A DNA stretch of 64,000 nucleotides. Origin: Phycisphaerae bacterium (lineage in GTDB: Bacteria; Planctomycetota; Phycisphaerae; UBA1845). The translations under genes were made by a program, and so were the position numbers. Each line of letters begins with the position of its first letter. The first letter of the stretch is position 1. The notes beneath the pieces were generated by a model, which was given only the letters and a program-made list of their open reading frames with translations, ran no database searches and was not told the origin of the DNA. The stretch spans positions 113,497-177,496 of the forward strand of contig JANQQK010000035.1 of NCBI GenBank assembly GCA_028289375.1. The letters are read 5' to 3'. Below are positions 702-64,000 of this stretch, piece by piece.

Positions 702-729
702 ACGCCCTCGCCCGTCGGGGGCGTTTTTT
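702..729 (+). terminator. Rho-independent terminator after flgM
   Basis: A 9-bp GC-rich stem (702-710 pairs with 716-724) encloses a 5-nt loop and is followed by a T-run to 729. Confidence 0.65.
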
Positions 730-769: not shown

Positions 770-798
770 TTTTCAATCGGTCGCGACGGGGCTAGGAT
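770..798 (+). promoter_or_regulatory. Candidate sigma-70-like promoter giving a leaderless methyltransferase mRNA
   Basis: TTTTCA (770-775), a 17-nt spacer, then TAGGAT (793-798). The ATG at 805 lies 6 nt after the -10 box, and there is no Shine-Dalgarno sequence in between. Confidence 0.35.
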
Positions 799-804
799 GT
801 CGGC

Positions 805-1491
805 ATGAGTCGCATCGAGCCAGACATTCCGTCCGCAGAGGAAATGAAGCAGCATGCCCGCGAGGAGTTTCAGGCGTGGGCGAGCACCTACGACAAATCG
901 CTGCTGAATTACTTTCTGTTTCGGCCTTCCTACATCGTGGCCATGGAGGAGATCGCGCGGTGGCATCATGAGCACCGTCGTCCTGTGCGCGTGCTGGATA
1001 TTGGCTGTGCGACGGGGACGCTGGCGAAGATGCTGGGGTGTTCGCCGATGCCGGCGACGATCGTGGGGCTGGACTTCTGTCCGAAGATGTGCGGGATGGC
1101 GGCGCGGAAGGCGAAACACTTCGGGGTGGATCACAAAGCCCGGTTCGTCAATGCCGACAGCGAGTTCCTGCCGTTCGACGATGCGTCGTTCGACATGATC
1201 ACCTGCTCCAATTCGTTTCATCATTATCCGAATCAGGCGGCTGCGGTGGCGGAGATGCATCGCGTGCTGGATCGCGACGGGCGTGTGATGGTCGTGGACG
1301 GGTTCCGCGACTGCGTGATCGGGTGGTTCGTGTTCGATGTGGTGATCAGCCGGATCGAGCACGGCGTCTATCACGCGCCGTGGCCTGTGATGAACGGGTA
1401 TTTCGAGAAGGCCGGTTTGTCGAACATCCGCCGTCGGCAGTTCAATTTCTGGTTTCCGTCGTTCGCGACGATCGGGGATCGGGTGGCGTGA
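805..1491 (+). CDS. Class I SAM-dependent methyltransferase (Methyltransf_11/UbiE-like)
   Basis: SAM-binding motif I VLDIGCATGTLAKML, an acidic loop GLDFCPKM, and post-I/II motifs FDMITCSNSFHHYPN and DGRVMVVD. Confidence 0.85.
   Translation: MSRIEPDIPSAEEMKQHAREEFQAWASTYDKSLLNYFLFRPSYIVAMEEIARWHHEHRRPVRVLDIGCATGTLAKMLGCSPMPATIVGLDFCPKMCGMAARKAKHFGVDHKARFVNADSEFLPFDDASFDMITCSNSFHHYPNQAAAVAEMHRVLDRDGRVMVVDGFRDCVIGWFVFDVVISRIEHGVYHAPWPVMNGYFEKAGLSNIRRRQFNFWFPSFATIGDRVA
1425..1491 (+). repeat. Direct repeat copy 1 (the last 21 codons plus stop of the methyltransferase)
   Basis: catccgccgtcggcagttcaatttctggtttccgtcgttcgcgacgatcggggatcgggtggcgtga recurs at 2032-2098 with about 7 substitutions. 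Confidence 0.9.
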
Positions 1492-6786: not shown

Positions 6787-7185
6787 TCACCCGTCCCAGA
6801 TTTCGGATGTTACCAACTCGATGGAGTTGTTGGCAGGGTCGCGGAAGTAGAGCGACTGGGCGCCGTTGCCCCATGTCACTTCCTGCTCGATGGGGATGGC
6901 GTGGGCGGCGAGGCGGTCGCGCCATGGCTGGAGGTCGCCGTGGGTGATGGAGAAAGCGACGTGCCCTGGGCCAACAGCACCGTGGGACGGCACTTCGCGC
7001 GAGCCGGCCGACTCATCCGGATCGAAAATCAGGAGGACACTATCATCACTCACACGAAAGAACACGAACACCGGCAACTGCTTTGACATCTTCTGCAAAC
7101 CGAGCACGTCGGCGTAGAAGGACTCCATGGCTGGCAGGTCTTTCGTGTAGATGCAGGTTTCCAGAACTCGTGATATGGTCGGCAT
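6787..7185 (-). CDS. VOC family protein (glyoxalase/bleomycin-resistance/dioxygenase fold)
   Basis: 132 aa with the typical VOC pattern: LETCIYTKDLPAMESFYADVLGL ... GHVAFSI ... SLYFRDPANNSIEL. Confidence 0.75.
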   Translation of the reverse strand: MPTISRVLETCIYTKDLPAMESFYADVLGLQKMSKQLPVFVFFRVSDDSVLLIFDPDESAGSREVPSHGAVGPGHVAFSITHGDLQPWRDRLAAHAIPIEQEVTWGNGAQSLYFRDPANNSIELVTSEIWDG

Positions 7186-7191
7186 GGTGGA

Positions 7192-7220
7192 AGTCTAACA
7201 CGGCGGTGCACTGGTGCGAA
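7192..7220 (-). promoter_or_regulatory. Candidate promoter giving a leaderless VOC/Trx-NHL operon transcript
   Basis: The minus strand reads TTCGCA-N17-TAGACT, followed by 6 nt (TCCACC) and the ATG at 7185. No Shine-Dalgarno sequence is present. Confidence 0.3.
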
Positions 7221-7242
7221 CTGAAATCCGGATGACGACAGA

Positions 7243-7557
7243 ATGAACAGCGAACAAGGCCCCAAAGACATCAAGGCCAAGCGCGACGAGGGCGTGCTGA
7301 TCATCACGTGGGCTGATGCAAGGGTGGATCGACTCGGGTTTCGCGACCTGCGGTTGGCGTGCGGATGCGCAGGGTGCATTCATGAGTTCACGCGGGAGCC
7401 GCTGCTCGATCCGGACACCGTGCCGTTGGACATCACGATCGCCGGCATGTCGCTGGTCGGCAATTACGCGATTCAGATCAATTGGTCCGATGGGCACGAC
7501 ACCGGCATCTACACGTGGACGCGGATCCGCGAAGTTGCCAATGGGAGAGCAGAGTAA
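7243..7557 (+). CDS. DUF971 family protein (gamma-butyrobetaine hydroxylase-like N-terminal domain)
   Basis: LRLACGCAGCIHE ... VGNYAIQINWSDGHDTGIYTW matches the DUF971 signature. Confidence 0.75.
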   Translation: MNSEQGPKDIKAKRDEGVLIITWADARVDRLGFRDLRLACGCAGCIHEFTREPLLDPDTVPLDITIAGMSLVGNYAIQINWSDGHDTGIYTWTRIREVANGRAE

Positions 7558-9980: not shown

Positions 9981-10141
9981 TTCAATTAGTAGATTCACAC
10001 AGATCATCCTCGCCGCCCTTTTCACCGATACCTCTCTCCGATATTATGAGCACGCTCATATTCGGGTGATACACCTCTGTGGGTGGCGGATCGGGTATAC
10101 TGCGTGGCTTGTTCGAGGAAATGGATGGGACGGAGGCTGTG

Positions 10142-10981: not shown

Positions 10982-11028
10982 ATGGCTTGACGACGCCGCG
11001 AGAATCGTTGCGGGCGCGGCGTGTTTGA

Positions 11029-12488
<1,460 letters not shown>

Positions 12489-13335: not shown

Positions 13336-13364
13336 TTGGCTGTTGCGGGCTTGTCGGCTAGGAT
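13336..13364 (+). promoter_or_regulatory. Candidate sigma-70-like promoter (TTGGCT-N17-TAGGAT) of the glycosyltransferase gene
   Basis: Exact 17-nt spacer. The gene start at 13412 has a GGGGAG ribosome-binding site. Confidence 0.3.
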
Positions 13365-15691: not shown

Positions 15692-16822
15692 TCAGGCGAA
15701 GGCGAGGTATGCACCGCCGATCGCAGCCAAGCCTGCAACGATGGCGAGCGTGATCTTGACCCAGCTGTAGGGGCGATCGCCCTGCACTTCACCCGTGGCT
15801 GCGTTGACGACGACCTGGTGCGGCTTCTCGTTGTAGGTATACCCCATCATCCACACGGGCAGGAGCAGGTGCTTGAAGGTGACGGCTGCGTGGGTGGTCT
15901 GGATCGAGTGTATCTGCTGGACATCGCCACCGATACGGCGGCGGACGTCGGCTTCGATGGCTTTGTCGATGCGCGACTTGGCTTCGACGAATCCGGCGCC
16001 AAGCGGGATGTCATAGGTGCGGGCGACGAAACCGGATAGCACATCCTGATTAAACGGGGTGCAGTCATTGAGTGGCCAGGGTTCGAGATCATCGAGGCGT
16101 TTGCGGGGGAGTCCTTTGGCGGCGATGACGAGGACATCGTCAAAAAAGCGTTTGAATCGACCGCTTGCGGGGGTCCATCGGGTGCGGACTTCGGTTCGGC
16201 GGTTTTTGCCGCTGCCGACGGTGACGGTGTAGTGGTCGCCGCGCATGCCGCTGTAGGCGTTGGTGGTGAACGAGTCGAATGTCCAGTACGGCAGGTAGAG
16301 ACCTGTGAAGCGACCCTGCACGCCGCGTTTCTTGAAGTCATTCGGGGCAAACCACCGCGACTGCACCCACGCGCGAAGATTGCCTTGTGCGGTCTTGCGG
16401 TCAATGCGAAACGAAAGCACGCCGTCGACCGCGATGCGGTGCTCGGCCTGGTGGACATTCTCACGCTGCAAGGGCACGCCGCAGTAGGCACATTCGGTGC
16501 TGGTCAGGTTGCCGGTGAATCGCACGGTGGCTCCGCACGACTTGCAACCCACTTCGCTGAACTCGGTGTCGATCTGGTCAACACCCGCCTCGCGCATGGC
16601 AGCAAGCCTTTCGAGCATGGCTTCGAAATCCTGCTCGACGATTTCCTGTTCCGGGTCGATGTGGAGCGATTGCTCGTAGCCGCAATGGTCGCACTTGAGT
16701 TGCTGGACACTGATGTTGAACGTCAGGTCTGCTCCGCACCCGGGACATGGGTAGGTGCGGGCGCTGGCGTCCTGTTGGCCTGCTGCAATTTCGGCGGACG
16801 ATGCGTCGTCGTGATCCGTCAT
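15692..16822 (-). CDS. Double zinc-ribbon protein with a C-terminal TM anchor (YdjG-like partner of the SPFH protein)
   Basis: Two CxxC...CxxC ribbons are present (CPGCGADL...CDHCG and CKSCGATV...CAYCG). The C-terminal helix is ITLAIVAGLAAIGGAYLAFA. It lies 15 bp downstream of the SPFH gene on the same strand. Confidence 0.6.
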   Translation of the reverse strand: MTDHDDASSAEIAAGQQDASARTYPCPGCGADLTFNISVQQLKCDHCGYEQSLHIDPEQEIVEQDFEAMLERLAAMREAGVDQIDTEFSEVGCKSCGATVRFTGNLTSTECAYCGVPLQRENVHQAEHRIAVDGVLSFRIDRKTAQGNLRAWVQSRWFAPNDFKKRGVQGRFTGLYLPYWTFDSFTTNAYSGMRGDHYTVTVGSGKNRRTEVRTRWTPASGRFKRFFDDVLVIAAKGLPRKRLDDLEPWPLNDCTPFNQDVLSGFVARTYDIPLGAGFVEAKSRIDKAIEADVRRRIGGDVQQIHSIQTTHAAVTFKHLLLPVWMMGYTYNEKPHQVVVNAATGEVQGDRPYSWVKITLAIVAGLAAIGGAYLAFA

Positions 16823-18014: not shown

Positions 18015-18043
18015 AGCGTAAATCTTGCGCGATGCGGGGTCAA
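18015..18043 (-). promoter_or_regulatory. Candidate sigma-70-like promoter (TTGACC-N17-TACGCT) of the SPFH/zinc-ribbon operon
   Basis: The minus strand reads TTGACC ccgcatcgcgcaagatt TACGCT. This is the best -35/-10 match seen in the window, about 70 nt upstream of the ATG at 17944. Confidence 0.4.
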
Positions 18044-21853: not shown

Positions 21854-23701
21854 CTATGGGTTGCCGGTGTCGGTGTCGTCGGCGAGAAAGCGCACGGTGA
21901 GTTGCAGATCGACTGTCATCGGCGGGCAGTCGTCGCCCAAATCTATCAGTACTTCGCGCACTTTCGTGTCGAGGCGTTCGGTGGTGGACTGCGTGCGGAT
22001 GGACTTACGTCCCATCATGCCTTCCATGTGAACCACGGTGCCGCGCAATATAACGTCCGCCAACGCATCGGTTGATGCCATCACCGATTGACCGACAAAT
22101 ACGCGACTGATGTCGGCTTCGTCGACTTCGGCGCGGAGACGGATGCGGTCGACGTTTCCGAGGCTGAGAATAGGCGGTTGCTGCTCGGCGTCGATGTCGA
22201 AGATTTCGCCAGGTTCGAGATGGCGATAGAGCACGTGGCCATCGATCGGGCTGCGGATGACGTGCTTGTCGAGGTCGGCTTCGGCGAGTTTCAATGCGGC
22301 TTGTGCCTGCTCAACGTTGGCTTCGGCGATGGCGAGATCATCGGGTGTTGGTCCTGCTTCGGACATCCGGGCGGCGGCAAGTTTGGATTCCAGTTCCGCC
22401 TCGGCGAGTCGAAGGTCTTCGACGGCTTCGTTGAATTCGGTGTCGGCCGCCTGGGATTGGGCGTGCAGTGCGGCGATGCGGTCATGCTCACGTTTGGCCC
22501 GTTCGTGGCGGGCTTTGGCTTTGTCGACCGCGGCGCGTGCCTGCTGGCGTTCTTCGGATCTGGTCCATGCATTCAGATCGGCGAGGTTGGCCCGGGCCAA
22601 CTTGAGGTCGGCCCGACGCAACGCAACGGTCGCCCGCGCGATGGTGTCATCGAGTGTCACCAGCGACTCGCCAATGGTGACCCGCTCACCGGCTTGTTTG
22701 GCGATCGACACAATGCGGCCACTGCGTTCGGCACGGAGGGCGATGACCTGGCTGATCGGCTCGACGACGGCGGGAGCAGCGGCGACAACACCTTGATCAA
22801 GCGTTCGTTCCGTTACGTTTGGCGTTGCGGGCGACGATACGGATCGGCTGGCCGACTTCTGCTGCGACCCGAACCACCACCCCCCACCGCCCATCACGAG
22901 CAGCGTGACGATCCACAGGAGCGCAGCCAATGCGCGTCCACCGCGTCGGTCGGCGGTTTCGATGACGGGTGCGCGCTCGGTCATGGTTCCAACATCGCTC
23001 GCGTGTGTTCCTTCATCGTCGGCCATCCTGCCATCCACCAGGTGCACGATCTTATCCACAAATGGCTCGAGACGGGAATCGTGCGACACGAGGACAACGG
23101 CTTTGCCGTGGTCGTGGGCCGCTGCGGAGAGACACTGCATGACATCGCGGGCGTGCTCCCAGTCAAGATTGGCGGTCGGCTCGTCGGCCAAAAGCAACCT
23201 CCCCGGACTGGCCAGCGCCCTGGCGATGCTGGCCCGTTGACGCTCACCGCCGCTCAACGTTGCGGGCAGGTGACGTTTGCGGGCAGTCATGTTCACCAGT
23301 TCCAGGCAGCGACCAGCCAGCGCGGCATCTGACGGTTGCTCGCCGTTTCGCGACGATCGGAGGCGAGCGCCAAGCACAACGTTGTCCCAGACCGTCAGCG
23401 ATTCAAGCAGATTCGACCCCTGAAAGATGAATGCGACGTGCTGTCTGCGTGCGGCGGGAAGCTCCGATTCCAAGACATCCTTCATCGGTCGGCCATTGAG
23501 CCACATGTCGCCGTCGTCGTGTCGCTGGAGCAGTCCAAGGATGTGCAGCAGCGTCGTCTTACCACTGCCGGACGGGCCTTTGATCATCACGATTTCGCCG
23601 GCGTGGACCGAAAAGCTGACGTCGCGCAGGGCATGAACCAGCGTGGCGCCGCTGCCGAATCGTTTCGAGATGTCGCGCACGATGGCCACGGGTTCGCTCA
23701 T
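21854..23701 (-). CDS. Fusion protein: ABC transporter ATP-binding domain (DevA/MacB-type), TM helix and HlyD-family periplasmic adaptor
   Basis: Walker A GPSGSGKTT, signature LSGGERQR and Walker B LLLADEP come first. Next is the TM helix ALAALLWIVTLLVMGGGGWWF. The adaptor follows: a lipoyl-like hairpin (GRIVSIAKQAGERVTIGESLVTLDD), a coiled coil, and IRSPIDGHVL. The start ATG at 23701 overlaps the permease stop (ATGA). Confidence 0.8.
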   Translation of the reverse strand: MSEPVAIVRDISKRFGSGATLVHALRDVSFSVHAGEIVMIKGPSGSGKTTLLHILGLLQRHDDGDMWLNGRPMKDVLESELPAARRQHVAFIFQGSNLLESLTVWDNVVLGARLRSSRNGEQPSDAALAGRCLELVNMTARKRHLPATLSGGERQRASIARALASPGRLLLADEPTANLDWEHARDVMQCLSAAAHDHGKAVVLVSHDSRLEPFVDKIVHLVDGRMADDEGTHASDVGTMTERAPVIETADRRGGRALAALLWIVTLLVMGGGGWWFGSQQKSASRSVSSPATPNVTERTLDQGVVAAAPAVVEPISQVIALRAERSGRIVSIAKQAGERVTIGESLVTLDDTIARATVALRRADLKLARANLADLNAWTRSEERQQARAAVDKAKARHERAKREHDRIAALHAQSQAADTEFNEAVEDLRLAEAELESKLAAARMSEAGPTPDDLAIAEANVEQAQAALKLAEADLDKHVIRSPIDGHVLYRHLEPGEIFDIDAEQQPPILSLGNVDRIRLRAEVDEADISRVFVGQSVMASTDALADVILRGTVVHMEGMMGRKSIRTQSTTERLDTKVREVLIDLGDDCPPMTVDLQLTVRFLADDTDTGNP

Positions 23702-24831
23702 CGAAATACCTCGGCCGGCGCCAATCGAAATACCCGCCACGCCCCGATCAAGCTTGATGTCAGGCAGATGATGAGTGTCATGGGCAACAGCAGCAGCAGC
23801 ATCCGCGGTGTCATGGTCATCACCACAGCCGTTCCACCCTCGCCCCAGATTCTCGAGACGACGACCGCCCCGGCGCACCCGAACACGTATCCCAGCAGGC
23901 TGATGATCAAACCCTGTCCGAGGATGACACCAGCCACGAATCCATTGTCGTAGCCCAGCGCCTTGAGCACGCCGAATTCACGCATCTTGACCAACACGCT
24001 CGTGACGAACGTTTGTCCGATGACGACCATGCCCACGATCAACGCCAGAACTGCCATCAAAACGAGCGAATACCCCATGCCCGTGCCGAAGACCCAGTAG
24101 CGCCAACTGCGTTCGGCGAATTGGCCACGCGTGAGCACTTCGACGTCGTCCACGCGTGACAGGATGTCTGCCCGAACCTGTTCGAGGTCGGCACCGTCAG
24201 CGCAATCGACCATAATGAAGACTGTCTTGTCCGATCCGATCCGCGTCAGATCGAGGGCCGACTCATAGGAGCAGAAGGCGTACGGCGTGATGGCGAATGA
24301 GTTCATGCCCGTGACGTAACCCGCCACATGCACGCGGTACCCACGAATCTCGCCGCGCGTTCCCACCGGCAAGGGCTTGCCATCCACGCCGAACCGCCAC
24401 CGCTCACGATCGTCCATAATGATGCCGTAACCCTCGTTCGTCCGTCCGCGGATGCGACCAGTGTCGATGGGAAGCCAATCACGTTCGGTATCGACGCCGA
24501 CGACAATGACCGACTCCTGCCGGCCATCCTCGAACCGCCAATGTCCGAACCCCACGACCATGCGGCCCGCATGCTGCACGCCGTCGACGCCGAGAACGTG
24601 GTATCGTCGCCGGCCTGGCATCGACGTGGAGAAGTCTGCGTTGGATGCGTTTTGCGGCACGACCCACAGGTCGGCAGAGCATTGATTGATGAGCTTCGCG
24701 GAGCTTTCGATCGCCCCGAGGAAAATCGAGACCTGCACGGCCATCAGCACGACCGAGAAAACCAGTCCGACGACGGCGATGGTGAATCGGAGCTTGTCGC
24801 GGACGAGGTTGCACCAGGCGATCTTCCACAT
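23698..24831 (-). CDS. ABC transporter permease, FtsX/MacB/DevC-like
   Basis: The N-terminus MWKIAWCNLVRDKLRFTIAVVGLVF is followed by a periplasmic domain and a C-terminal FtsX-type 3-helix bundle ending LAPAEVFR. Confidence 0.8.
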   Translation of the reverse strand: MWKIAWCNLVRDKLRFTIAVVGLVFSVVLMAVQVSIFLGAIESSAKLINQCSADLWVVPQNASNADFSTSMPGRRRYHVLGVDGVQHAGRMVVGFGHWRFEDGRQESVIVVGVDTERDWLPIDTGRIRGRTNEGYGIIMDDRERWRFGVDGKPLPVGTRGEIRGYRVHVAGYVTGMNSFAITPYAFCSYESALDLTRIGSDKTVFIMVDCADGADLEQVRADILSRVDDVEVLTRGQFAERSWRYWVFGTGMGYSLVLMAVLALIVGMVVIGQTFVTSVLVKMREFGVLKALGYDNGFVAGVILGQGLIISLLGYVFGCAGAVVVSRIWGEGGTAVVMTMTPRMLLLLLPMTLIICLTSSLIGAWRVFRLAPAEVFR

Positions 24832-24838
24832 GGCCCGC

Positions 24839-24844
24839 AGTATA
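24839..24844 (-). promoter_or_regulatory. Candidate -10 box (TATACT) 7 nt upstream of the permease ATG (leaderless geometry)
   Basis: The minus strand reads GGTATACTGCGGGCCATG. There is no Shine-Dalgarno sequence and no convincing -35 element. Confidence 0.25.
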
Positions 24845-24971
24845 CCCCGCGGGCCGTGATACCCCACGCGTGCTCGGTGCCGGTGAAAGTCGTCGGGGTG
24901 TGACTTGTTGGAATCGGGCGGCTTGGTTAGGCTCTCGGCTTCCGCGTTGTCCTCATCGGCGACGCGGTCCA

Positions 24972-25058
24972 GGAGCGGTGTCCGAGCGGCTGAAGGGACC
25001 GCATTGGAAATGCGGTGTACGGGTTACCGTACCGAGGGTTCGAATCCCTCCCGCTCCG
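24972..25058 (+). tRNA. tRNA-Ser (anticodon GGA)
   Basis: Acceptor GGAGCGG pairs with CCGCTCC, plus discriminator G. The anticodon stem CCGCA/TGCGG carries the loop TTGGAAA. It has a long class II variable arm (GTACGGGTTACCGTAC) and the T-arm GAGGG TTCGAAT CCCTC. No CCA is encoded. Confidence 0.92.
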
Positions 25059-38754: not shown

Positions 38755-39107
38755 CTCCAATCCTCGACCCACTCAACTAACGCGATGTCATTGTCACCAC
38801 TCGTCCCATGCTCGCAATACCATAGCTGTGGACTCTCATAGTCCCCTCGATCACTGTCGTGCACATGGCCACAATACGGACACGTCCAACAGATGTGGCA
38901 ACCATCGTCCGGTGATTCGCCACGAACCACAGGAAACGCCTCCTCGCTCGAAACGACCACCCACTGGTCATGCTCGTGAGGTTCATAGCTTGCGTTGTTG
39001 AATCTAAGTTCGTGCCACACGCCGGCTTCTGACATGCCGATCTGCCAACACTTGTCGCGCAGGAACGCCCGCCAAATCGTGACCGTTCGTCGCTCCAATT
39101 CGCTCAT
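38751..39107 (-). CDS. Hypothetical Cys/His-rich small protein (118 aa), translationally coupled to tkt-tal
   Basis: Its ATG overlaps the TGA of the upstream Tkt-Tal ORF (ATGA at 39104-39107). The cluster CHICWTCPYCGHVH...CEH suggests metal binding. Confidence 0.5.
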   Translation of the reverse strand: MSELERRTVTIWRAFLRDKCWQIGMSEAGVWHELRFNNASYEPHEHDQWVVVSSEEAFPVVRGESPDDGCHICWTCPYCGHVHDSDRGDYESPQLWYCEHGTSGDNDIALVEWVEDWS

Positions 39108-42100
39108 GCCGTCTGCAATTGCGTAACCTTCGTCTTCAGGTCGGCCATCAGGGCATCGAAGGAATTGGCAAAGGCTTTCACGCCGGCGGTGAGCAATTCG
39201 TCGGTCACGTCCGACATGTTGATGCCCTCGGCTTCGATGGCATCCATGGCCGCACGGTAACTGGCGACGTCCTGCTCGATGGCACTCGCGACAGCCCCAT
39301 GGTCCAGCACGGCATCGATCGTGTGCAGCGGCAGCGTGTTGACCGTCTCCGGACCAATCAGCGGATCAACATAGCACGTATCACCGTAGGCCGGATCCTT
39401 CGCACTCGTGCTGGCCCACAGCGGTCGCTGCACGCGCGAACCCATCTTGCGAAGCTTCTCGAATCGCGACCCGTGGAAGACGGCTTTGTAGTCGGCGTAT
39501 GCGAGCTTGGCGTTACCGACCGCAGCCATGCCGAGTCGCGTGCTGAGGTTCTTATGGCCTGCGTCGATCTTCTCGCGGATGCGCTTGTCGACGAGCGTGT
39601 CGACGCGGCTGACGAAGAAAGACGCGACACACGACACGCCGGTGACGTCCTGCCCCGCGTCGGCCCGTTTTTCCAAACCGCGGATGTAGGCTTCCATCAC
39701 CTTGGCGTACATCGCCCGCGAGAAGATCAGCGTGACGTTGACGTGAATGCCCTCGGCAATCAGCGTCTCGATCGCAGGGATGCCCTCCTCTGTCGCCGGA
39801 ACCTTGATGAACACGTTGGGGCGATTCAGCTTGCCGAACAACCGCCGCGCCTCCTCGACCGTGCCCTTGGTGTCGTGGGCCAAGTGTGGATTGACTTCGA
39901 GGCTGACGAATCCGTCGAGACCATTGGTCCGCTCGTAGACCGGTTTGAACAGGTCTGCTGCGTCGCCCACATCGCCGACAGTGAGCGCTTCATACACGTC
40001 ATCGGTAGACGCCCCATTGGCCACCAAATTCTCGATCGCGGCGTCGTAGTCGTCGCTGCCGGCGATGGCTTTGTGGAAGATGGTCGGGTTGCTCGTCACG
40101 CCGACGACGCCCTGATCGATCAACCGCTGGAGGTCGCCGCCTTCGATCATCGATCGGCTGATCGAGTCGCACCAGATGGACTGCCCCACCGCGTTGATCT
40201 GTTCGATCCGAGTTCCCATTGCGTCGCCACCCTCCTTCGCTCCGCCTGCCAATACCTGCCTGGCCACTTTGACCACATTCTCCGCCGTGAATCCGAATTC
40301 GCGCATCACCTCGCCCGCGGGCGCCGACTCGCCGAAACGATCCAATCCGATAATCGCGCCTTCGCTGCCGACGTACCGTTCCCAACCATGCGTCGCACCC
40401 GCCTCGATGGCCACCCGCTTCGTCACCGATGGCGGCAAAACATCGTTTCGATAGCTGATCGGCTGACGTTCGAACTGCTCCCAGCATGGCAGGCTGACGA
40501 CGCGAACCTTCACGCCCTCGCTCGTCAGTGATTCATACGCCGCCACACAATGCTGCAATTCCGAACCAGTCCCAATCAGGATCACGTCGGGCGAGCCGTC
40601 GCAGTCCGCCAACACATAACCACCCTTCGCCAACCCGCTCGCCGATGCATACGTCGACCGATCGAGCGTCGGCACACCCTGACGCGTCAACGCCAGCAGT
40701 ATGGGACGATCCGTCACCGACATGATGTAGCGCCACGCTTCGACCGTTTCGTTCGCGTCCGCTGGTCGAACAACATCAAGTCCCGGCATCGCACGCAAAG
40801 ACGCAACGTGTTCGACGGCCTGATGGGTCGGACCATCCTCGCCGAGTCCGATGCTGTCGTGCGTGAAAACGTAGATGACCGGCTGATGCATCATGGCCGA
40901 AAGGCGAATCGACGGCCGGCAATAATCTGTAAACGTCAAGAAGCTCGACACGAAGGGCCGCATACCGCTGAGCGACATCCCGTTCGCCGCCGCTGCCATC
41001 GCGTGCTCGCGAATGCCGAACGCGATGTTGCGACCCTCGGGTTGCTCTTTGGAAAACAGCGGGCTGTCCGGCACAATCGTTTTGGTGGAATTGACCAGGT
41101 CAGCCGAACCACCCATCAGCGCCGTCACTCTCGGCGCGATCGCCGCCAATGCCTTGCCACCGGCAGCGCGCGTGGCCATCCCCTTTGCATCAGCCTCGAA
41201 CACCGGCAGATGCGCATCCCAACCATCGGGACACTCCCGACTGCTCATCGCTTTCCACTCGGCCGCCAGCTTCGGATGATCAGCTTCGTACTGCTCGAAC
41301 ATCGCCCGCCACTGCTGCGAATACTCAATCCCGCGCGTTGCAGCCGCACCCGCCATGTGCGTTCGCACTTCTTCGGGAACGTGGAATGTCGCCTCCGGAT
41401 CCCAGCCATACGCCTGCTTGGTCAGCTTGATCTCATCCGCGCCGAGCGGTTCGCCGTGCGCCTTCGATGTGTTTTCGCGGTTCGGGCTGCCGAATCCGAT
41501 CTTGCTCTTGCACACGATCAGCGACGGGCGATTCGGCTCGGCGATCGCGGCTTCGAGCGCCACATGCACCTCATCAAGGTTGTTCGCGTCAGCCACGTGT
41601 GTCACGAACCAGCCGTAAGACTGAAACCGCGCAGCCACGTTCTCGGAAAACGCGATGTTCGTCCGGCCATCGATCGTGATCTCGTTGTCATCGTAGATCC
41701 AGACGAGGTTCGACAGGCCGAGATGCCCCGCCATGGAAGCCGCTTCCGCACCGACACCCTCCATCAGGTCACCATCGCTGCAGAGCGCAAACACGCGATG
41801 TTTGAACAACTCACAGCCCTGCGCGTTAAAATGGGCGTTTTGCCACGCTTGGGCGATGGCCATTCCGACCGAATTACCTACGCCCTGCCCAAGTGGCCCT
41901 GTCGTCGTTTCCACACCGGGACAAATGCCGTATTCCGGATGACCGGCACACTTTCCGCCCAGCTGACGAAAACTGCGCAGATCCTCCAGAGTGACATCAT
42001 ACCCATACAAATGGAGCAAACTGTAGATCAGCATCGACGCATGCCCCATCGACAGCACGAATCGGTCGCGGTCGGGCCAATCGGGGTTGGCGGGGTCAAA

Positions 42101-42250
42101 ACGCAGGAATCGGTCCCAAAGGACATAGGCCACCGGGGCCATGCCCATCGGCGCGCCGGGGTGGCCGCTGTTGGCCTGCTGAACGGCGTCGATGGAGAGG
42201 GTGCGAATGGTGTCGATGCACAACTGGTCGATCGAGCGTTCGGTGGTCAT
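39104..42250 (-). CDS. tkt/tal: Bifunctional transketolase (N-terminal ~670 aa) / transaldolase (C-terminal ~370 aa) fusion
   Basis: The N-terminus LSIDAVQQANSGHPGAPMGMAPVAYVLW...GHASMLIYSLLHLYGY is the transketolase ThDP motif region. The C-terminus QSIWCDSISRSMIEGGDLQRLIDQGVVGVTSNPTIFHKAI...FIKVPAT is a transaldolase with the active-site Lys context. One uninterrupted 1048-codon frame. Confidence 0.85.
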   Translation of the reverse strand: MTTERSIDQLCIDTIRTLSIDAVQQANSGHPGAPMGMAPVAYVLWDRFLRFDPANPDWPDRDRFVLSMGHASMLIYSLLHLYGYDVTLEDLRSFRQLGGKCAGHPEYGICPGVETTTGPLGQGVGNSVGMAIAQAWQNAHFNAQGCELFKHRVFALCSDGDLMEGVGAEAASMAGHLGLSNLVWIYDDNEITIDGRTNIAFSENVAARFQSYGWFVTHVADANNLDEVHVALEAAIAEPNRPSLIVCKSKIGFGSPNRENTSKAHGEPLGADEIKLTKQAYGWDPEATFHVPEEVRTHMAGAAATRGIEYSQQWRAMFEQYEADHPKLAAEWKAMSSRECPDGWDAHLPVFEADAKGMATRAAGGKALAAIAPRVTALMGGSADLVNSTKTIVPDSPLFSKEQPEGRNIAFGIREHAMAAAANGMSLSGMRPFVSSFLTFTDYCRPSIRLSAMMHQPVIYVFTHDSIGLGEDGPTHQAVEHVASLRAMPGLDVVRPADANETVEAWRYIMSVTDRPILLALTRQGVPTLDRSTYASASGLAKGGYVLADCDGSPDVILIGTGSELQHCVAAYESLTSEGVKVRVVSLPCWEQFERQPISYRNDVLPPSVTKRVAIEAGATHGWERYVGSEGAIIGLDRFGESAPAGEVMREFGFTAENVVKVARQVLAGGAKEGGDAMGTRIEQINAVGQSIWCDSISRSMIEGGDLQRLIDQGVVGVTSNPTIFHKAIAGSDDYDAAIENLVANGASTDDVYEALTVGDVGDAADLFKPVYERTNGLDGFVSLEVNPHLAHDTKGTVEEARRLFGKLNRPNVFIKVPATEEGIPAIETLIAEGIHVNVTLIFSRAMYAKVMEAYIRGLEKRADAGQDVTGVSCVASFFVSRVDTLVDKRIREKIDAGHKNLSTRLGMAAVGNAKLAYADYKAVFHGSRFEKLRKMGSRVQRPLWASTSAKDPAYGDTCYVDPLIGPETVNTLPLHTIDAVLDHGAVASAIEQDVASYRAAMDAIEAEGINMSDVTDELLTAGVKAFANSFDALMADLKTKVTQLQTA

Positions 42251-42298: not shown

Positions 42299-42327
42299 AC
42301 GCTAATGCCGCGCGGCGGGCCGTTCAA
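42299..42327 (-). promoter_or_regulatory. Candidate sigma-70-like promoter (TTGAAC-N17-TAGCGT) of tkt-tal
   Basis: The minus strand reads TTGAAC ggcccgccgcgcggcat TAGCGT, about 45 nt upstream of the ATG at 42250, which has a GGAAAG ribosome-binding site. Confidence 0.3.
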
Positions 42328-50256: not shown

Positions 50257-51141
50257 TTACCTGGAGTTCGCCTTGGCCGTCCTCACCTGCAGGACGACGA
50301 TGTAGAGCACGCTCAGGGCAATGAACGCGCCGCCGATGAACGTCGACGTTTCGGGCACCTCGTTCAACACCAGCCACACCCAGATCGGACTCAAAATCGG
50401 TTCAAGCAGAATCAGCGTGACGCCCTTCTGGGCCGTGACACGCTTCAACCCCTCCGAATACAGCACATACGGAATGCCGAATTGCACAACCCCAGTGAAA
50501 AGCAGCCAGCCAATCAGAGACAACGTCATGACCGGCAACGCCGACAACAGTGCAATGGGCATCATGATGACAGCCGACCCCATGCACACGCACCAGACCA
50601 GCACAAGTGCGTCAATACGGTGCGCACGACGGAATACAACCGACTGCAACCCGAACACCACACCGGCGATGATGCCAATGATCAGTCCGGATTGACCGGG
50701 CGTGTACTGGTCCCAGAAAATCACCCCCACGCCGACAAACGCCAGAATCATCGCGACGGTCTGCGGCCCTGTGGCACGATCACCCGTGACAAACGGCGAC
50801 AGAAGAAACACCCACGCCGGCGCCGTGTACTGCAGGAAGATTGCATTCGCCGCCGTCGTCATCGTCATCGACAGCACAAATGTAACGCACATGCCGGTGA
50901 AGACGACAACGGCTGCGACAAGCCAACGCTTCTCCGCGATCGCCCGAGGTCGCCACACCACGAATGGCGTCAGGATCAACCCGGCGATCAATGAGCGAAA
51001 AGCCGCAATCGCCATCGCGGGCAACTCCTGCTGATAAAGATACTTGATGAGAACGCCGTTAAGACTCCACAGCGCCGCAGCCGACAGCATCAATACCGTA
51101 CCGACCGCCTGAACGTGGCGCGATTCGTCTGAGACACTCAC
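50257..51141 (-). CDS. DMT-superfamily transporter (EamA-like)
   Basis: About 10 predicted TM helices with the two-EamA-repeat layout. The GTG start overlaps the stop of the upstream dacB-like gene (GTGA). Confidence 0.75.
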   Translation of the reverse strand: MSVSDESRHVQAVGTVLMLSAAALWSLNGVLIKYLYQQELPAMAIAAFRSLIAGLILTPFVVWRPRAIAEKRWLVAAVVVFTGMCVTFVLSMTMTTAANAIFLQYTAPAWVFLLSPFVTGDRATGPQTVAMILAFVGVGVIFWDQYTPGQSGLIIGIIAGVVFGLQSVVFRRAHRIDALVLVWCVCMGSAVIMMPIALLSALPVMTLSLIGWLLFTGVVQFGIPYVLYSEGLKRVTAQKGVTLILLEPILSPIWVWLVLNEVPETSTFIGGAFIALSVLYIVVLQVRTAKANSR

Positions 51142-52625
51142 GGTGTGGAACCGTCATCGAGATCAGAAATCAGGCGGCACAGTTCGTCCTGCGAATCCTT
51201 GTAAGGCTTGCTTGGACCTTTGATGCCGTTGAAGAAGATGGCAAACGCGTACCTCTTGCCCGCATCGCTGTCGACATAACCCGCCAGCGTCCGAACGCCA
51301 CGAAGCGTGCCGGTCTTGGCTTGAACCCGGTTCGCCAAACCGTGCATGCGCCGACGCAGCGAGCCATCATCACCCGGGACCGCGAGACTGTCGGCAAACA
51401 TCGACGCGGATGAATGACGATGCATATGCGTGAGCACGCCGACGATCTGCGTGGCCGTCGCGCGATTGTCGCGACTCAAACCTGATCCATCAGCAAAGTG
51501 AAAACCCGCCGTCGCAATCCCGCATCGCGTCAAAAAGTCGGTGACGCCAATGGAAGCAGATGACCACGAACCGACCGCCTCCTTGGCTCCCCGATTCCTC
51601 AGATGTTCATAACCGACCCGCTTGGCCAGACATTCGGCGAAGAGGTTCTGGCTGTTCTTGCCGATCCGCGCGAGCACGTCGGCCATCGATGTCTTGTGCA
51701 CATCCAGAACCTGCACACCATCTGGAACCGAACCATCCTGCTGACGAATACGCCGACGCTCGACGCCATCGACCGCAATTCCAGCCTCGGAAAGTTGATG
51801 TTGAAACGCGGACGCGAAGAGCAATTCGCCGTCCGGGACCGCCACCGATTCCAGCGTCGATTTGCGGCTGCAATTGCGACTGAGCCGATAGGTAAACGTC
51901 TCACCGATGCGCCCGACGACCGGAACCCCCTTGGATGCTGTACGCGCACGGTTGTCGATCCTGACGATCTCTGCGGGCGGCTCTACCGAATAGGCCGGAC
52001 GTGCCCCAAGCTTCGCACCGGGGATGACCGTGATATCGATACAGTTATCGTTGATGTTGAGACCCCCCACAGGCGCGGCGTACCACTTCTGCAATTCACG
52101 CGGGCTCCACGACGGATGCACGCGCTGTTCGTCGAAAATGGACCCGTCTAGCACCAATGGACCCTCGAGTGGGGGCAGGTCTTTCGCTTTCACCAGCGAC
52201 GCCCAGCGCTCCAGCGTGGTCGTCACCGAGCGCCCGTCGCGCTCAACCAGCCGCGGGTCTCCAAACCCCGGATCACCACCGCCGACAACAATCAGCGACC
52301 GCCCATCTGTCGCCAGCGAGGTTTCAAACGCGAACTCCGGCCCAAGCAGGTCCAGCCCCGCCGCCATCACAAACACCTTCTGGTTGCTGGCGGGGATCAT
52401 CGGCTGACGCGGGTTGAGACGCGCGACGACGCGAAGATCCGATAAGTCGACGACGAGCAACGAGGCGTCGACCGGTTTCGCGGCGACCTTGCGGACGAAT
52501 GCGTCAAGTCGCGTGTGAGCGCCGACGGGGTCGATGGTGGATGACTCTGCCGACGCGATCACCGCGCACGTCAGGAGTTGCGCAACGGCAGCGGCGACAG
52601 CAACTTGGCGTGTTCGTCGGTTCAT
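51138..52625 (-). CDS. dacB: D-alanyl-D-alanine carboxypeptidase/endopeptidase (PBP4, peptidase S13)
   Basis: SxxK (PASNQKVF), SxN region (DGSGLSRDN) and KTG (AKTGTLRGV). Signal peptide MNRRTRQVAVAAAVAQLLTCAVIASA, starting from ATG 52625. Confidence 0.8.
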   Translation of the reverse strand: MNRRTRQVAVAAAVAQLLTCAVIASAESSTIDPVGAHTRLDAFVRKVAAKPVDASLLVVDLSDLRVVARLNPRQPMIPASNQKVFVMAAGLDLLGPEFAFETSLATDGRSLIVVGGGDPGFGDPRLVERDGRSVTTTLERWASLVKAKDLPPLEGPLVLDGSIFDEQRVHPSWSPRELQKWYAAPVGGLNINDNCIDITVIPGAKLGARPAYSVEPPAEIVRIDNRARTASKGVPVVGRIGETFTYRLSRNCSRKSTLESVAVPDGELLFASAFQHQLSEAGIAVDGVERRRIRQQDGSVPDGVQVLDVHKTSMADVLARIGKNSQNLFAECLAKRVGYEHLRNRGAKEAVGSWSSASIGVTDFLTRCGIATAGFHFADGSGLSRDNRATATQIVGVLTHMHRHSSASMFADSLAVPGDDGSLRRRMHGLANRVQAKTGTLRGVRTLAGYVDSDAGKRYAFAIFFNGIKGPSKPYKDSQDELCRLISDLDDGSTP

Positions 52626-52633
52626 GCCGCCCC

Positions 52634-52639
52634 ATGATA
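52634..52639 (-). promoter_or_regulatory. Candidate -10 box (TATCAT) 8 nt upstream of the dacB ATG (leaderless geometry)
   Basis: The minus strand reads CCTATCATGGGGCGGCATG. No Shine-Dalgarno sequence is present. Confidence 0.2.
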
Positions 52640-52818
52640 GGCATGGGGTCCGTATCCGCCAGCGTCGGCCAATGGCAGGATGTCCCGTCCGCCGTGGGGG
52701 CGAGTTTTCGGACCTGTGGATTCCTGGGTGGGCGATCTTGACATTCGATGGGGCGTGGCTAAAGTGATTTGCTCGCTGGCTGGAACGGATCAACGTTTCA
52801 GGCGGTGACCCAAAATCA

Positions 52819-52892
<74 letters not shown>

Positions 52893-59286: not shown

Positions 59287-59314
59287 TTGCCGGGATGGCT
59301 TCCGGGCATACGAT
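59287..59314 (+). promoter_or_regulatory. Candidate promoter (TTGCCG-N16-TACGAT) giving a leaderless sulfatase-family mRNA
   Basis: TACGAT (59309-59314) is followed by 6 nt (GGGGGT) and the ATG at 59321. No Shine-Dalgarno sequence is present. Confidence 0.3.
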
Positions 59315-59320
59315 GGGGGT

Positions 59321-60823
59321 ATGCGAACGGGCGCGATTCAACTGGTGGCGGCGGTGCTGGCGGGTCTTGCCCTTCTCGGCTGCCGGCGCGACAGTGCGGA
59401 ACCACCACCGGTGGAAAAAAAGAAGCCCGCCGTGCCCAATGTGATCTTTCTGACCGTCGACACACTGCGGGCAGATCACTTGGGCGCTTATGGCTACGAC
59501 CGGCCAACGATGCCGTGGCTCGACGAATTCGCGGCGGAGGCGACGGTGTTCGAGAATGCGGTCGTGCCGCGGGGGTCAACGCGGTCGAGCTATGCGTCGA
59601 TGCTGACCGGGCTTTATCCGCATCGGCATGGGGCGCGGCACAACCGGCTGGTGCTGCACGATGACACGGTGACGCTGGCTGAGGTGCTGAAGTCGGCTGG
59701 CTACCACACGGCTGGGTTCGTGAGCAACTTCATTCTGATTTCGGAGTTGAGCGGGTGCGACCAGGGATTCGACGTTTACGATGATCGCCTGACCGATAAG
59801 GAGTCCTATCGCGACAACTTCGAACGCACAGCAGATCGGACGGCGGATGCGATCCTGGCGTGGTTGGCGGACGATCCGCCGCAGCCATTCTTCCTGTTCA
59901 CCAATTTCATTGATCCACATGGCCCCTACCAACCGCCGGAAGCGTATCGAGCACAGTTTCGATCCGGCAAGACCAAGCCGATGGACCCGGCGCAGATTCC
60001 GGATTACCAGGCCAAGGCAGGCGAACCGGCCGACTTCCACGACTTCGTCGATCGCTACGACGCCGAAATTCGATTCACCAACGACGCGATCAAGCGTGTC
60101 GTCGATGCGTTGAAGGCGACGGGCGTTTGGGACAATGCGATCGTGGTCTTCACAGCCGATCATGGCGAATCGCTTGGCATGCACGGGATCTACTTCGAGC
60201 ATCACTTCCACGTGTGGGAGGAGACCACGCGTGTGCCACTGGCGATCAAGTTGCCCGGGGAATGGCCGACGAAAGGCAAGCGCATTGGCGATGTTGCGTC
60301 ACCGATGGACTTGCCGGCGACGGTGCTGAGTCGGCAGGGGCCGCTTGCGGTGATCAAGTTGCCGCCGGATATGGATGGCATCGACCTCACGGACCTGTTG
60401 AAAGGAACGGATCAGCCGGATCGACTCGTGTTCATGGAATTTCCGTCGATGGCCACGCCCGCACGCGAGCCGTTTCCGGATGTCTGGGGTGCGCGGTCTG
60501 CCACGCACAAGCTGATCATGGTGACAGACGTTGAAAATGGTCGCCCGTTGCAAAAAGTTTTATACAACGTGCAGAATGATCCGAACGAACAATCGCCATT
60601 GGCGATGGGCCCATCTTCACCGGTGTGGACGCGACTGAATCGAGAACTGCTGGATCATGTCATGAGCGTTCGCTCTTTCTCGCTGCCATTCGTCGTCACC
60701 GAATACGAGGTGCCGATGAAGGATCGCACCGACTACGTCAAGAAGCACAACGATCGCGTTCAAACCAAACCGCTGACCAAAGAGCAGACCGACAAGCTCC
60801 GCGGGCTTGGGTACGTCGACTGA
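59321..60823 (+). CDS. Sulfatase-like hydrolase/transferase (alkaline-phosphatase superfamily) lipoprotein
   Basis: Lipobox LALLGC. NVIFLTVDTLRADHLGAYGY (metal/nucleophile region), FTADHGESLGMHG. It lacks the C/S-x-P-x-R formylglycine motif. Confidence 0.75.
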   Translation: MRTGAIQLVAAVLAGLALLGCRRDSAEPPPVEKKKPAVPNVIFLTVDTLRADHLGAYGYDRPTMPWLDEFAAEATVFENAVVPRGSTRSSYASMLTGLYPHRHGARHNRLVLHDDTVTLAEVLKSAGYHTAGFVSNFILISELSGCDQGFDVYDDRLTDKESYRDNFERTADRTADAILAWLADDPPQPFFLFTNFIDPHGPYQPPEAYRAQFRSGKTKPMDPAQIPDYQAKAGEPADFHDFVDRYDAEIRFTNDAIKRVVDALKATGVWDNAIVVFTADHGESLGMHGIYFEHHFHVWEETTRVPLAIKLPGEWPTKGKRIGDVASPMDLPATVLSRQGPLAVIKLPPDMDGIDLTDLLKGTDQPDRLVFMEFPSMATPAREPFPDVWGARSATHKLIMVTDVENGRPLQKVLYNVQNDPNEQSPLAMGPSSPVWTRLNRELLDHVMSVRSFSLPFVVTEYEVPMKDRTDYVKKHNDRVQTKPLTKEQTDKLRGLGYVD

Positions 60824-63274: not shown

Positions 63275-63357
63275 GAATTCCCGCCGGCCAAAGTAGTTCC
63301 AGCCGAAGAGTCGCTGTGCCTATCGTTGAACCAAGTGCACGCAGCATGAGATTGGGG

Positions 63358-63363
63358 TAGTTT
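63358..63363 (+). promoter_or_regulatory. Candidate -10 box (TAGTTT) 7 nt upstream of ATG 63371 (leaderless geometry)
   Basis: The sequence is ggggTAGTTTgtgcgccATG. No Shine-Dalgarno sequence is present. Confidence 0.2.
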
Positions 63364-63370
63364 GTGCGCC

Positions 63371-64000
63371 ATGGAATCCCTTCGGCGACACTACGAACCC
63401 TGGATCCTGCTCATCACAGGCTATCTCGTTTGCGACACTGTACTCGCAATCACAATGACCCAAACAGGCGGCATGTTCAGTTTCGGTCAATTGTGGAAGG
63501 CCATCAATGGCGAGCAAGTCTGGGCAATGGGCTCGCCGCTGACACAAGGAATGGCCTTTGCCAATGTAGCAGGATTGTCGATTCCGCTGATTATCGCCGT
63601 GGGCTTGGTGTTTTCTCCAAGATCGGCGCGACGGACCGTGGTCGTCGGATGCGTCGCTGGAGCTATAACTGAATTCGCTTGGTATTTTGCTTCATTGAGT
63701 ACTCCGCCGCCTTTCGGTTCCGACTATTCTGTGGCGGAGACGGCAGTTTGGATGCTGAGATATAAGTATCCGCAACTGGCGTGTTACGTAGTGGCCGGCC
63801 TGACTATTAGCGTATGCCGATTGTCCGGTCAACGATTCTTTGTTCCTGTAGCAGCATACATGGTGACGCACCGGTGTCTAACGCTCTACCAAACCGCGTC
63901 TCTTGCTTCGGCCCCACAACAAGCCGGTGCGCCTGTTCGACCGAAGATTCCGATTTGGGAGATGCCATGGTGGGTATGGTACCCAATCATGCTTATCGCG
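63371..64000 (+). CDS. Partial (5' portion) polytopic membrane protein, hypothetical; it runs off the window end
   Basis: My own translation from ATG 63371 gives MESLRRHYEPWILLITGYLVCDTVLAI...WEMPWWVWYPIMLIA. That is 210 codons with no stop and several hydrophobic helices. It is absent from the supplied ORF track because it has no stop. The track's 63364-63672 ORF is in another frame and is Arg-rich. Confidence 0.5.
   Translation, partial: MESLRRHYEPWILLITGYLVCDTVLAITMTQTGGMFSFGQLWKAINGEQVWAMGSPLTQGMAFANVAGLSIPLIIAVGLVFSPRSARRTVVVGCVAGAITEFAWYFASLSTPPPFGSDYSVAETAVWMLRYKYPQLACYVVAGLTISVCRLSGQRFFVPVAAYMVTHRCLTLYQTASLASAPQQAGAPVRPKIPIWEMPWWVWYPIMLIA

Follow-up and report, generated by a model that had tools for sequence, protein, structure and literature searches.

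Do Phycisphaerae start translation on mRNAs that lack a 5' leader? The question is raised by a stretch of 64,000 nucleotides from a Phycisphaerae bacterium (contig JANQQK010000035.1, positions 113,497 to 177,496 of the forward strand; G+C ~60%), hereafter called the window, in which six genes show the same arrangement of a TANNNT hexamer, a gap of 6-8 nt and an ATG. As judged from known promoters and known leaderless genes, these six genes probably make leaderless mRNAs from -10 boxes that end 6-8 nt before the ATG. An earlier reading of the letters alone (the sequence-only reading) had listed the six sites, and when the sequence was re-read the geometry was present at each of them, with the first T of the hexamer about 12-13 nt 5' of the start codon and with ATG as start codon at 6/6 sites (Table 1). 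The three -35-like hexamers named there were found as well, namely TTTTCA and TTCGCA with spacers of 17 nt and TTGCCG with 16 nt. The genes it had contrasted with the six for their Shine-Dalgarno sequences were correct (AAGGAG 5' of 7657 and 17944, GGAGG 5' of 10142), and its three promoters of leadered genes are present in the window.

In the proposed mechanism, the hexamers would be the -10 elements of housekeeping promoters of the sigma-70 type with the consensus TTGnnn, 16-18 nt, TAnnnT. The transcription start of such promoters is expected ~7 nt past the last T of the hexamer. Because of this distance, RNA polymerase would initiate on the A of the ATG, or 1-2 bases from it, when the box ends 6-8 nt upstream. 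The resulting mRNA would have neither a 5' leader nor a Shine-Dalgarno sequence and would be translated by recognition of the 5'-terminal AUG. The alternative that survives best, although it is unlikely, keeps the promoters and assumes short-leadered mRNAs whose 5' ends precede the ATG by a few bases, above all at the site with the 8-nt gap, or whose starts are heterogeneous. A leader of 1-5 nt might then be handled like a leaderless mRNA or partly via another route. The spacings, which span 6-8 nt, and the pooled peak at 6-7 nt with few matches at 8 nt are in favour of it. However, in 5/6 sites the hexamer is as far from the purine A of the ATG as is usual for initiation, and a short leader would functionally be near to leaderless initiation.

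The leaderless reading depends on the position of the start codons, and support for the proposed ones came from signal peptides, from family profiles, from the N-termini of orthologues and from independent gene calls. Identical proteins occur on Logan contigs of run SRR20820731. At site 1, an in-frame TAG at 793 rules out a longer form of the methyltransferase, and most of 22 orthologues begin at the position aligned with ATG 805. Several of them carry L, A, F or V at the window's alternative Met15 and must therefore start upstream of it. The Pfam Glyoxalase profile is aligned with its position 4 at residue 9 of the site 2 product, where an in-frame TAG is found at -12. Positions 3-380 of the TIGR01185 devC equivalog profile correspond to residues 4-376 of the site 3 product; the public gene call begins at GTG 24867, which adds 12 residues absent from the devC family. 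A classical signal peptide, MNRRTRQVAVAAAVAQLLTCAVIASA, starts at the Met of ATG 52625 (site 4), and the independent public gene call yields the identical 495-aa product. ATG 59321 (site 5) is the earliest start in its open reading frame, and the lipoprotein signal MRTGAIQLVAAVLAGLALLGC, with LLGC at its end, starts there. At site 6, ATG 63371 is also the start in the independent call on Logan contig L099. The start codon itself is also in line with the proposal: ATG was observed at 14/15 box-positive starts vs 62/139 others in the pooled set (p = 0.0002), although the start calls are crude.

Given this evidence, it is very unlikely that the hexamers are -10 boxes of ordinary leadered genes whose true starts lie further downstream and whose annotated N-termini are too long. 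Such starts are suggested by the in-frame ATG at codon 15 of site 1, from which a few orthologues are annotated, and by the home-made gene caller, which favoured GTG 52562 at site 4. Against this stand the proposed Met residues at sites 4 and 5, each of which opens a signal peptide, the alignment of the devC profile from residue 4 and of the Glyoxalase profile from residue 9, the residues other than Met at position 15 of several methyltransferase orthologues and the agreement of the independent calls at 52625 and 63371. Furthermore, wrong starts would not give the sharp peak at 6-7 nt described below.

The second question is whether the hexamer is a promoter element. For this, 42 sites of the window and of related loci were aligned on the hexamer. 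Relative to the hexamer, T, T and G were in excess at -23, -22 and -21. The trinucleotide TTG occurred six times when the spacer was 17 nt and no more than twice for any other spacer, and hexamers with at least 4/6 matches to TTGACA were found nine times at the 17-nt spacer vs a mean of 1.3 at the others (p ~1e-5). The three middle positions of the hexamer were uninformative. The full pattern TTGNNN-N17-TANNNT occurs seven times in the window, a total no higher than in shuffles, but all 7/7 are in non-coding DNA, which makes up 12.8% of the window (0.128^7 ~6e-7), and each faces, from upstream, a gene or tRNA on the same strand. Because of this confinement to non-coding DNA 5' of genes and tRNAs, TANNNT is regarded as the sigma-70 type -10 element of this organism. 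A scan of this high-GC window with the E. coli promoter consensus was uninformative with 5 matches vs 4.7 expected.

A G-rich run was observed just 5' of the hexamer (G in 21, 18 and 19 of the 42 sites at -4 to -2), for example at 788-792, 24845-24849 and 63353-63357 in the window. It may represent an extended -10 feature specific to this lineage.

It is hardly credible that the hexamer instead serves as a signal for translation of a leadered mRNA, for instance as a ribosome-binding site of the non-Shine-Dalgarno type or an S1-binding site, and is no promoter element. Planctomycetes do have few Shine-Dalgarno genes, and their upstream bias has been ascribed to 'leaderless mRNA and/or RPS1' (PMC5397173). 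Such a signal would, however, not call for a -35-like hexamer enriched at exactly 17 nt upstream, nor would it be paired with TTGNNN before tRNA genes and far 5' of Shine-Dalgarno genes. The uninformative middle three positions are those of high-GC -10 boxes, and the signal is confined to the heads of transcription units.

All six window genes head transcription units, with an upstream gap of at least 57 nt or a divergent neighbour; the gene of site 6 heads a close-packed run of at least eight genes on one strand. At site 1, the strong intrinsic terminator of the preceding FlgM-like gene is located 75 nt upstream, and a new promoter for the methyltransferase is thus forced into 730-804. In the close relative L090, the equivalent terminator ends ~37 nt 5' of the methyltransferase ATG, which leaves room for little beyond a promoter. 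Only 57 nt (7186-7242) separate the glyoxalase ATG 7185 on the minus strand from a divergent 104-aa open reading frame at 7243-7557 on the plus strand. Since the glyoxalase promoter occupies most of this gap, the divergent frame either has no intergenic promoter of its own or is not a real gene.

Shine-Dalgarno sequences are used by this organism, as their 4-mers peak 6-12 nt 5' of starts in this lineage. They were found in 1/15 box-positive vs 45/139 box-negative genes (Fisher p = 0.04), which bears out the anticorrelation that the sequence-only reading had proposed as a test, and the sole box-positive match is the AGGA inside TAGGAT itself.

The frequency of the box was compared with chance using a home-made, motif-blind gene caller based on a 2nd-order Markov model. 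TANNNT was counted at every upstream offset, and the 60 nt upstream of starts were dinucleotide-shuffled in 2000 rounds as chance model. A 4th-order Markov caller was dropped because of over-fitting to the 64-kb window, with real genes missed. The window contains 2141 ATG trinucleotides, 20 of which (0.9%) belong to a TANNNT-N6-8-ATG; 6/20 of these are at gene starts. In the window, the box was present at 6-8 nt in 4/39 called genes vs a shuffle mean of 0.50, and four or more were reached in 3/2000 shuffles. The Phycisphaerae SMC loci L002-L009 showed it in 11/115 genes vs 2.07 expected, a value reached in 0/2000 shuffles. By spacing, these loci had 4 matches at 6 nt and 7 at 7 nt vs ~0.9 per other position. 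When all candidate starts up to the chosen one were counted, spacing 7 had 15 matches vs ~2.6 elsewhere. When 246 genes of 16 loci were pooled without the methyltransferase orthologues, there were 8 matches at spacing 6 and 10 at spacing 7 on a background of 1.63 per position, i.e. 18 matches vs 3.3 expected (Poisson p ~1e-8), and few matches at 8. The sharp rise of TANNNT 6-7(-8) nt 5' of starts, absent at other offsets, is the enrichment that had been predicted from the sequence.

In-frame start codons inside genes showed no TANNNT peak, and neither did 292 genes of mixed-taxon metagenome AroA loci that were processed identically; the method does not create the signal. The AroA scan had returned distant loci only (<=61% identity) of mixed taxonomy, which were unusable as source of orthologues for sites 4-6 and were kept as control. 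An artefact of in-frame TAG/TAA stops before the first ATG was considered, since every second hexamer at spacing 6 has TAG as its first three letters. It was rejected because the peak at spacing 7 cannot consist of in-frame stops and because spacing 9, which is also in frame, remained at background.

The box is retained in orthologues whose flanking DNA has changed. For the methyltransferase, it was found at 6-8 nt in 6/8 distinct loci, the window included, while the flanking DNA could not be aligned (Table 1). Its presence in 5/7 of the other loci has p ~3e-8 at a per-gene chance of ~1.7%; the box was not present in the most distant orthologues (L097 and L098). The single DevC orthologue (L002, 90% aa identity) retains TATACT, 7 nt and ATG between diverged flanks. 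Both PBP4 orthologues keep the box (2/2), one with TATCAT and 8 nt before the ATG of the signal-peptide Met (L102), the other with TATGAT and 6 nt before an ATG 8 codons 5' of the called start (L101, 6001 vs 5977). In contrast, the SMC gene retains a GGAGG Shine-Dalgarno sequence in most of the same genomes. The window's SMC protein has 78% identity to that of the Phycisphaerae metagenome-assembled genome (MAG) OFTM371, the closest relative (L090), and 51-61% to those of other Phycisphaerae/Phycisphaerales MAGs, which places the window in this class.

That the six sites are chance matches, with start codons picked after the motif had been seen, has a next to negligible probability: six sites per window are few, TANNNT is a loose pattern and start 24831 was chosen by the earlier reader and is unused in the public annotation, but motif-blind starts still exceed expectation in the window and in its relatives, the control taxa have no peak, the box is kept in orthologues and stop codons cannot explain spacing 7.

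Several points weigh against the leaderless interpretation. A recognisable -35 element is present at only 3/6 window sites (1, 2 and 5) and absent at sites 3, 4 and 6. The Shine-Dalgarno anticorrelation reaches only p = 0.04, and enrichment was weak in a second set of relatives with 3/92 best starts (L090-L098, methyltransferase gene excluded). The start calls rest on a crude home-made gene caller, for which reason histograms of all candidate starts and the independent public gene calls were used in addition. At site 4, the gap of 8 nt may leave a leader of 1-2 nt. Site 1 has the alternative in-frame ATG at codon 15 with the purine run AGAGGAA 5' of it, although this run is merely 2 nt from that ATG. 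Finally, no transcription-start mapping was found in the papers searched for this organism or its Planctomycetota relatives. Every sequence-level feature of the leaderless proposal was found, while the transcription start and the leaderless mode of translation would follow from what holds for sigma-70 promoters and for genes of Actinobacteria and Deinococcus. The sequence-only reading had also spoken of a sizeable gene subset; in a single window of 64 kb, this amounts to ~15% of genes or ~18% of what look like transcription-unit heads, and the latter value is similar to the proportion of heads in which a Shine-Dalgarno sequence can be recognised.

The arrangement is known from other bacteria. 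Bacterial leaderless genes have TANNNT ~12 nt before the start, with uninformative middle positions in high-GC phyla (Zheng et al. 2011, PMC3160421), and in the group C genomes of GeneMarkS-2 a gap of 6-8 nt separates the Pribnow box from the start (Lomsadze et al. 2018, PMC6028130). The window resembles these TA-led genes and group C genomes in the position of TAnnnT, in the lack of a Shine-Dalgarno sequence, in the restriction to operon-first genes and in that box-led and Shine-Dalgarno-led genes share one genome. It differs in the lineage, Phycisphaerae of the Planctomycetota, and in the leaderless share of ~10-15% of genes vs 20-46% reported for known leaderless phyla. Compared to the canonical sigma-70 promoter (TTGACA-17-TATAAT), the two hexamers, the 16-18 nt spacer, TTG as the best kept part and the invariant T, A and final T of the -10 box are alike, whereas the inner positions of the -10 box are unconstrained, half of the leaderless sites have a weak -35 or none and a G-rich stretch precedes the -10. 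The mechanism is textbook knowledge for Actinobacteria and Deinococcus, and the lineage alone is new. Planctomycetes were not among the phyla with leaderless genes detected in PMC3160421, the main text of PMC6028130 does not mention Planctomycetota and ProTISA contains one planctomycete genome, which it placed in the class 'atypical only'. Nakagawa et al. 2017 (PMC5397173) described a low Shine-Dalgarno fraction and the upstream A/T bias quoted above, based on a single planctomycete genome and on a principal component of nucleotide composition; their study had no positioned TANNNT box, no -35 partner and no test of conservation in orthologues.

Public calls of leaderless-type genes are often off the box-bearing ATG and usually extended 12-42 codons upstream. 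The methyltransferase call of L095 (266 aa) is 42 codons too long (10001 vs the box-bearing ATG at 10127), and the box-bearing ATG is 27 codons inside the PBP4 call of L102 (522 aa; 2359 vs 2440). This suggests a systematic N-terminal mis-annotation of leaderless-type genes in Phycisphaerae. On balance, the data lean towards leaderless initiation as a conserved, class-wide feature of Phycisphaerae that would serve about one fifth of the transcription units and the same orthologous genes across 58-89% protein identity, and that standard callers would mis-annotate upstream. For this mostly uncultured class, about which little is known, the analysis provides TTGnnn-17-TAnnnT as a promoter consensus that can be put to use, and it accounts for some over-extended public N-termini, such as GTG 24867 vs ATG 24831. 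It suggests the use of leaderless-aware models when Phycisphaerae genomes are annotated and adds a lineage of the Planctomycetes-Verrucomicrobia-Chlamydiae (PVC) group to the debate on spread and age of bacterial leaderless initiation.

Table 1. Boxes, promoters, terminator and genes of the window, and boxes before the aligned ATG of methyltransferase orthologues. Strands are given in brackets; leaderless starts are predictions.
Feature	Position (strand)	Details
Site 1, -10 box TAGGAT	793-798 (+)	6 nt gap, ATG 805; -35-like TTTTCA 770-775, 17-nt spacer
Site 1, class I SAM methyltransferase gene	805..1491 (+)	228 aa; predicted leaderless start; Pfam
Site 2, -10 box TAGACT	7197-7192 (-)	6 nt gap, ATG 7185; -35-like TTCGCA 7220-7215, 17-nt spacer
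Site 2, glyoxalase/VOC-family protein gene	6787..7185 (-)	132 aa; predicted leaderless start
Site 3, -10 box TATACT	24844-24839 (-)	7 nt gap, ATG 24831
Site 3, DevC-like ABC permease gene	23698..24831 (-)	377 aa; predicted leaderless start
Site 4, -10 box TATCAT	52639-52634 (-)	8 nt gap, ATG 52625
Site 4, PBP4 / D-Ala-D-Ala carboxypeptidase gene	51138..52625 (-)	495 aa; predicted leaderless start; heads PBP4-EamA pair
Site 5, promoter TTGCCG-16-TACGAT	59287..59314 (+)	TACGAT 59309-59314; 6 nt gap, ATG 59321
Site 5, sulfatase lipoprotein gene	59321..60823 (+)	500 aa; predicted leaderless start; aroA 18 nt 3'
Site 6, -10 box TAGTTT	63358-63363 (+)	7 nt gap, ATG 63371
Site 6, gene of membrane protein of unknown family	63371..64000 (+)	322 aa in full; extends past window end
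Methyltransferase box, window		TAGGAT, 6 nt
Methyltransferase box, L090		TAGCAT, 6 nt
Methyltransferase box, L092		TACACT, 8 nt
Methyltransferase box, L094		TACACT, 7 nt
Methyltransferase box, L095		TACCAT, 6 nt
Methyltransferase box, L096		TACGTT, 7 nt
Intrinsic terminator of FlgM-like gene 372-674	709..729 (+)	all-GC 5-bp stem CGCCC/GGGCG, then TTTTTT
Leadered promoter TTGGCT-17-TAGGAT	13336..13364 (+)	5' of glycosyltransferase gene
Leadered promoter TTGACC-17-TACGCT	18015..18043 (-)	5' of gene starting 17944 with AAGGAG Shine-Dalgarno sequence
Leadered promoter TTGAAC-17-TAGCGT	42299..42327 (-)	5' of gene 39104-42250
tRNA promoter TTGTTG-17-TAGGCT	24905..24933 (+)	38 nt 5' of tRNA-Ser; divergent from site 3
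tRNA promoter TTGACA-16-TAAAGT	52738..52765 (+)	53 nt 5' of tRNA-Asp; divergent from site 4

The Rfam scan of the window returned two tRNAs only, Ser-GGA and Asp-GTC. Both genes have their own TTGnnn-16/17-TAnnnT promoter, and each is divergent from a leaderless-type gene (DevC and PBP4, respectively). The promoters form back-to-back pairs in intergenic regions of 140-190 nt (24831-24972 and 52625-52819).

A further sequence with a strong match to the promoter pattern, TTGACA-17-TAGCGT at 11025-11053 (+), is followed after ~25 nt by an intrinsic terminator with a 10-bp stem (11080-11102) and a T-run. This unit (11025-11112) lies just 5' of a purA-like gene (GKGKIVD motif at ~11205) and had no credible match in Rfam. 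It could be a small RNA of ~50 nt, a transcription attenuator or a chance adjacency to the terminator of the upstream gene.

The 1048-aa product of the gene at 39104-42250 (-) contains transketolase N, Pyr and C domains and a transaldolase domain (TAL_FSA), according to Pfam on the identical Logan gene, and appears to be a transketolase-transaldolase fusion. At 15692-16822 (-), a 376-aa product is encoded for which Pfam gave a faint Cas12f1-like_TNB (TnpB-type) match on the identical Logan gene; it follows directly after a Band_7/GYF gene, and the pair is conserved in L002. Positions 1-3164 of L090, ~7 kb 5' of its methyltransferase orthologue, encode Cas3, Cas_GSU0054 and Cas_GSU0053, of which no counterpart was seen in the window.

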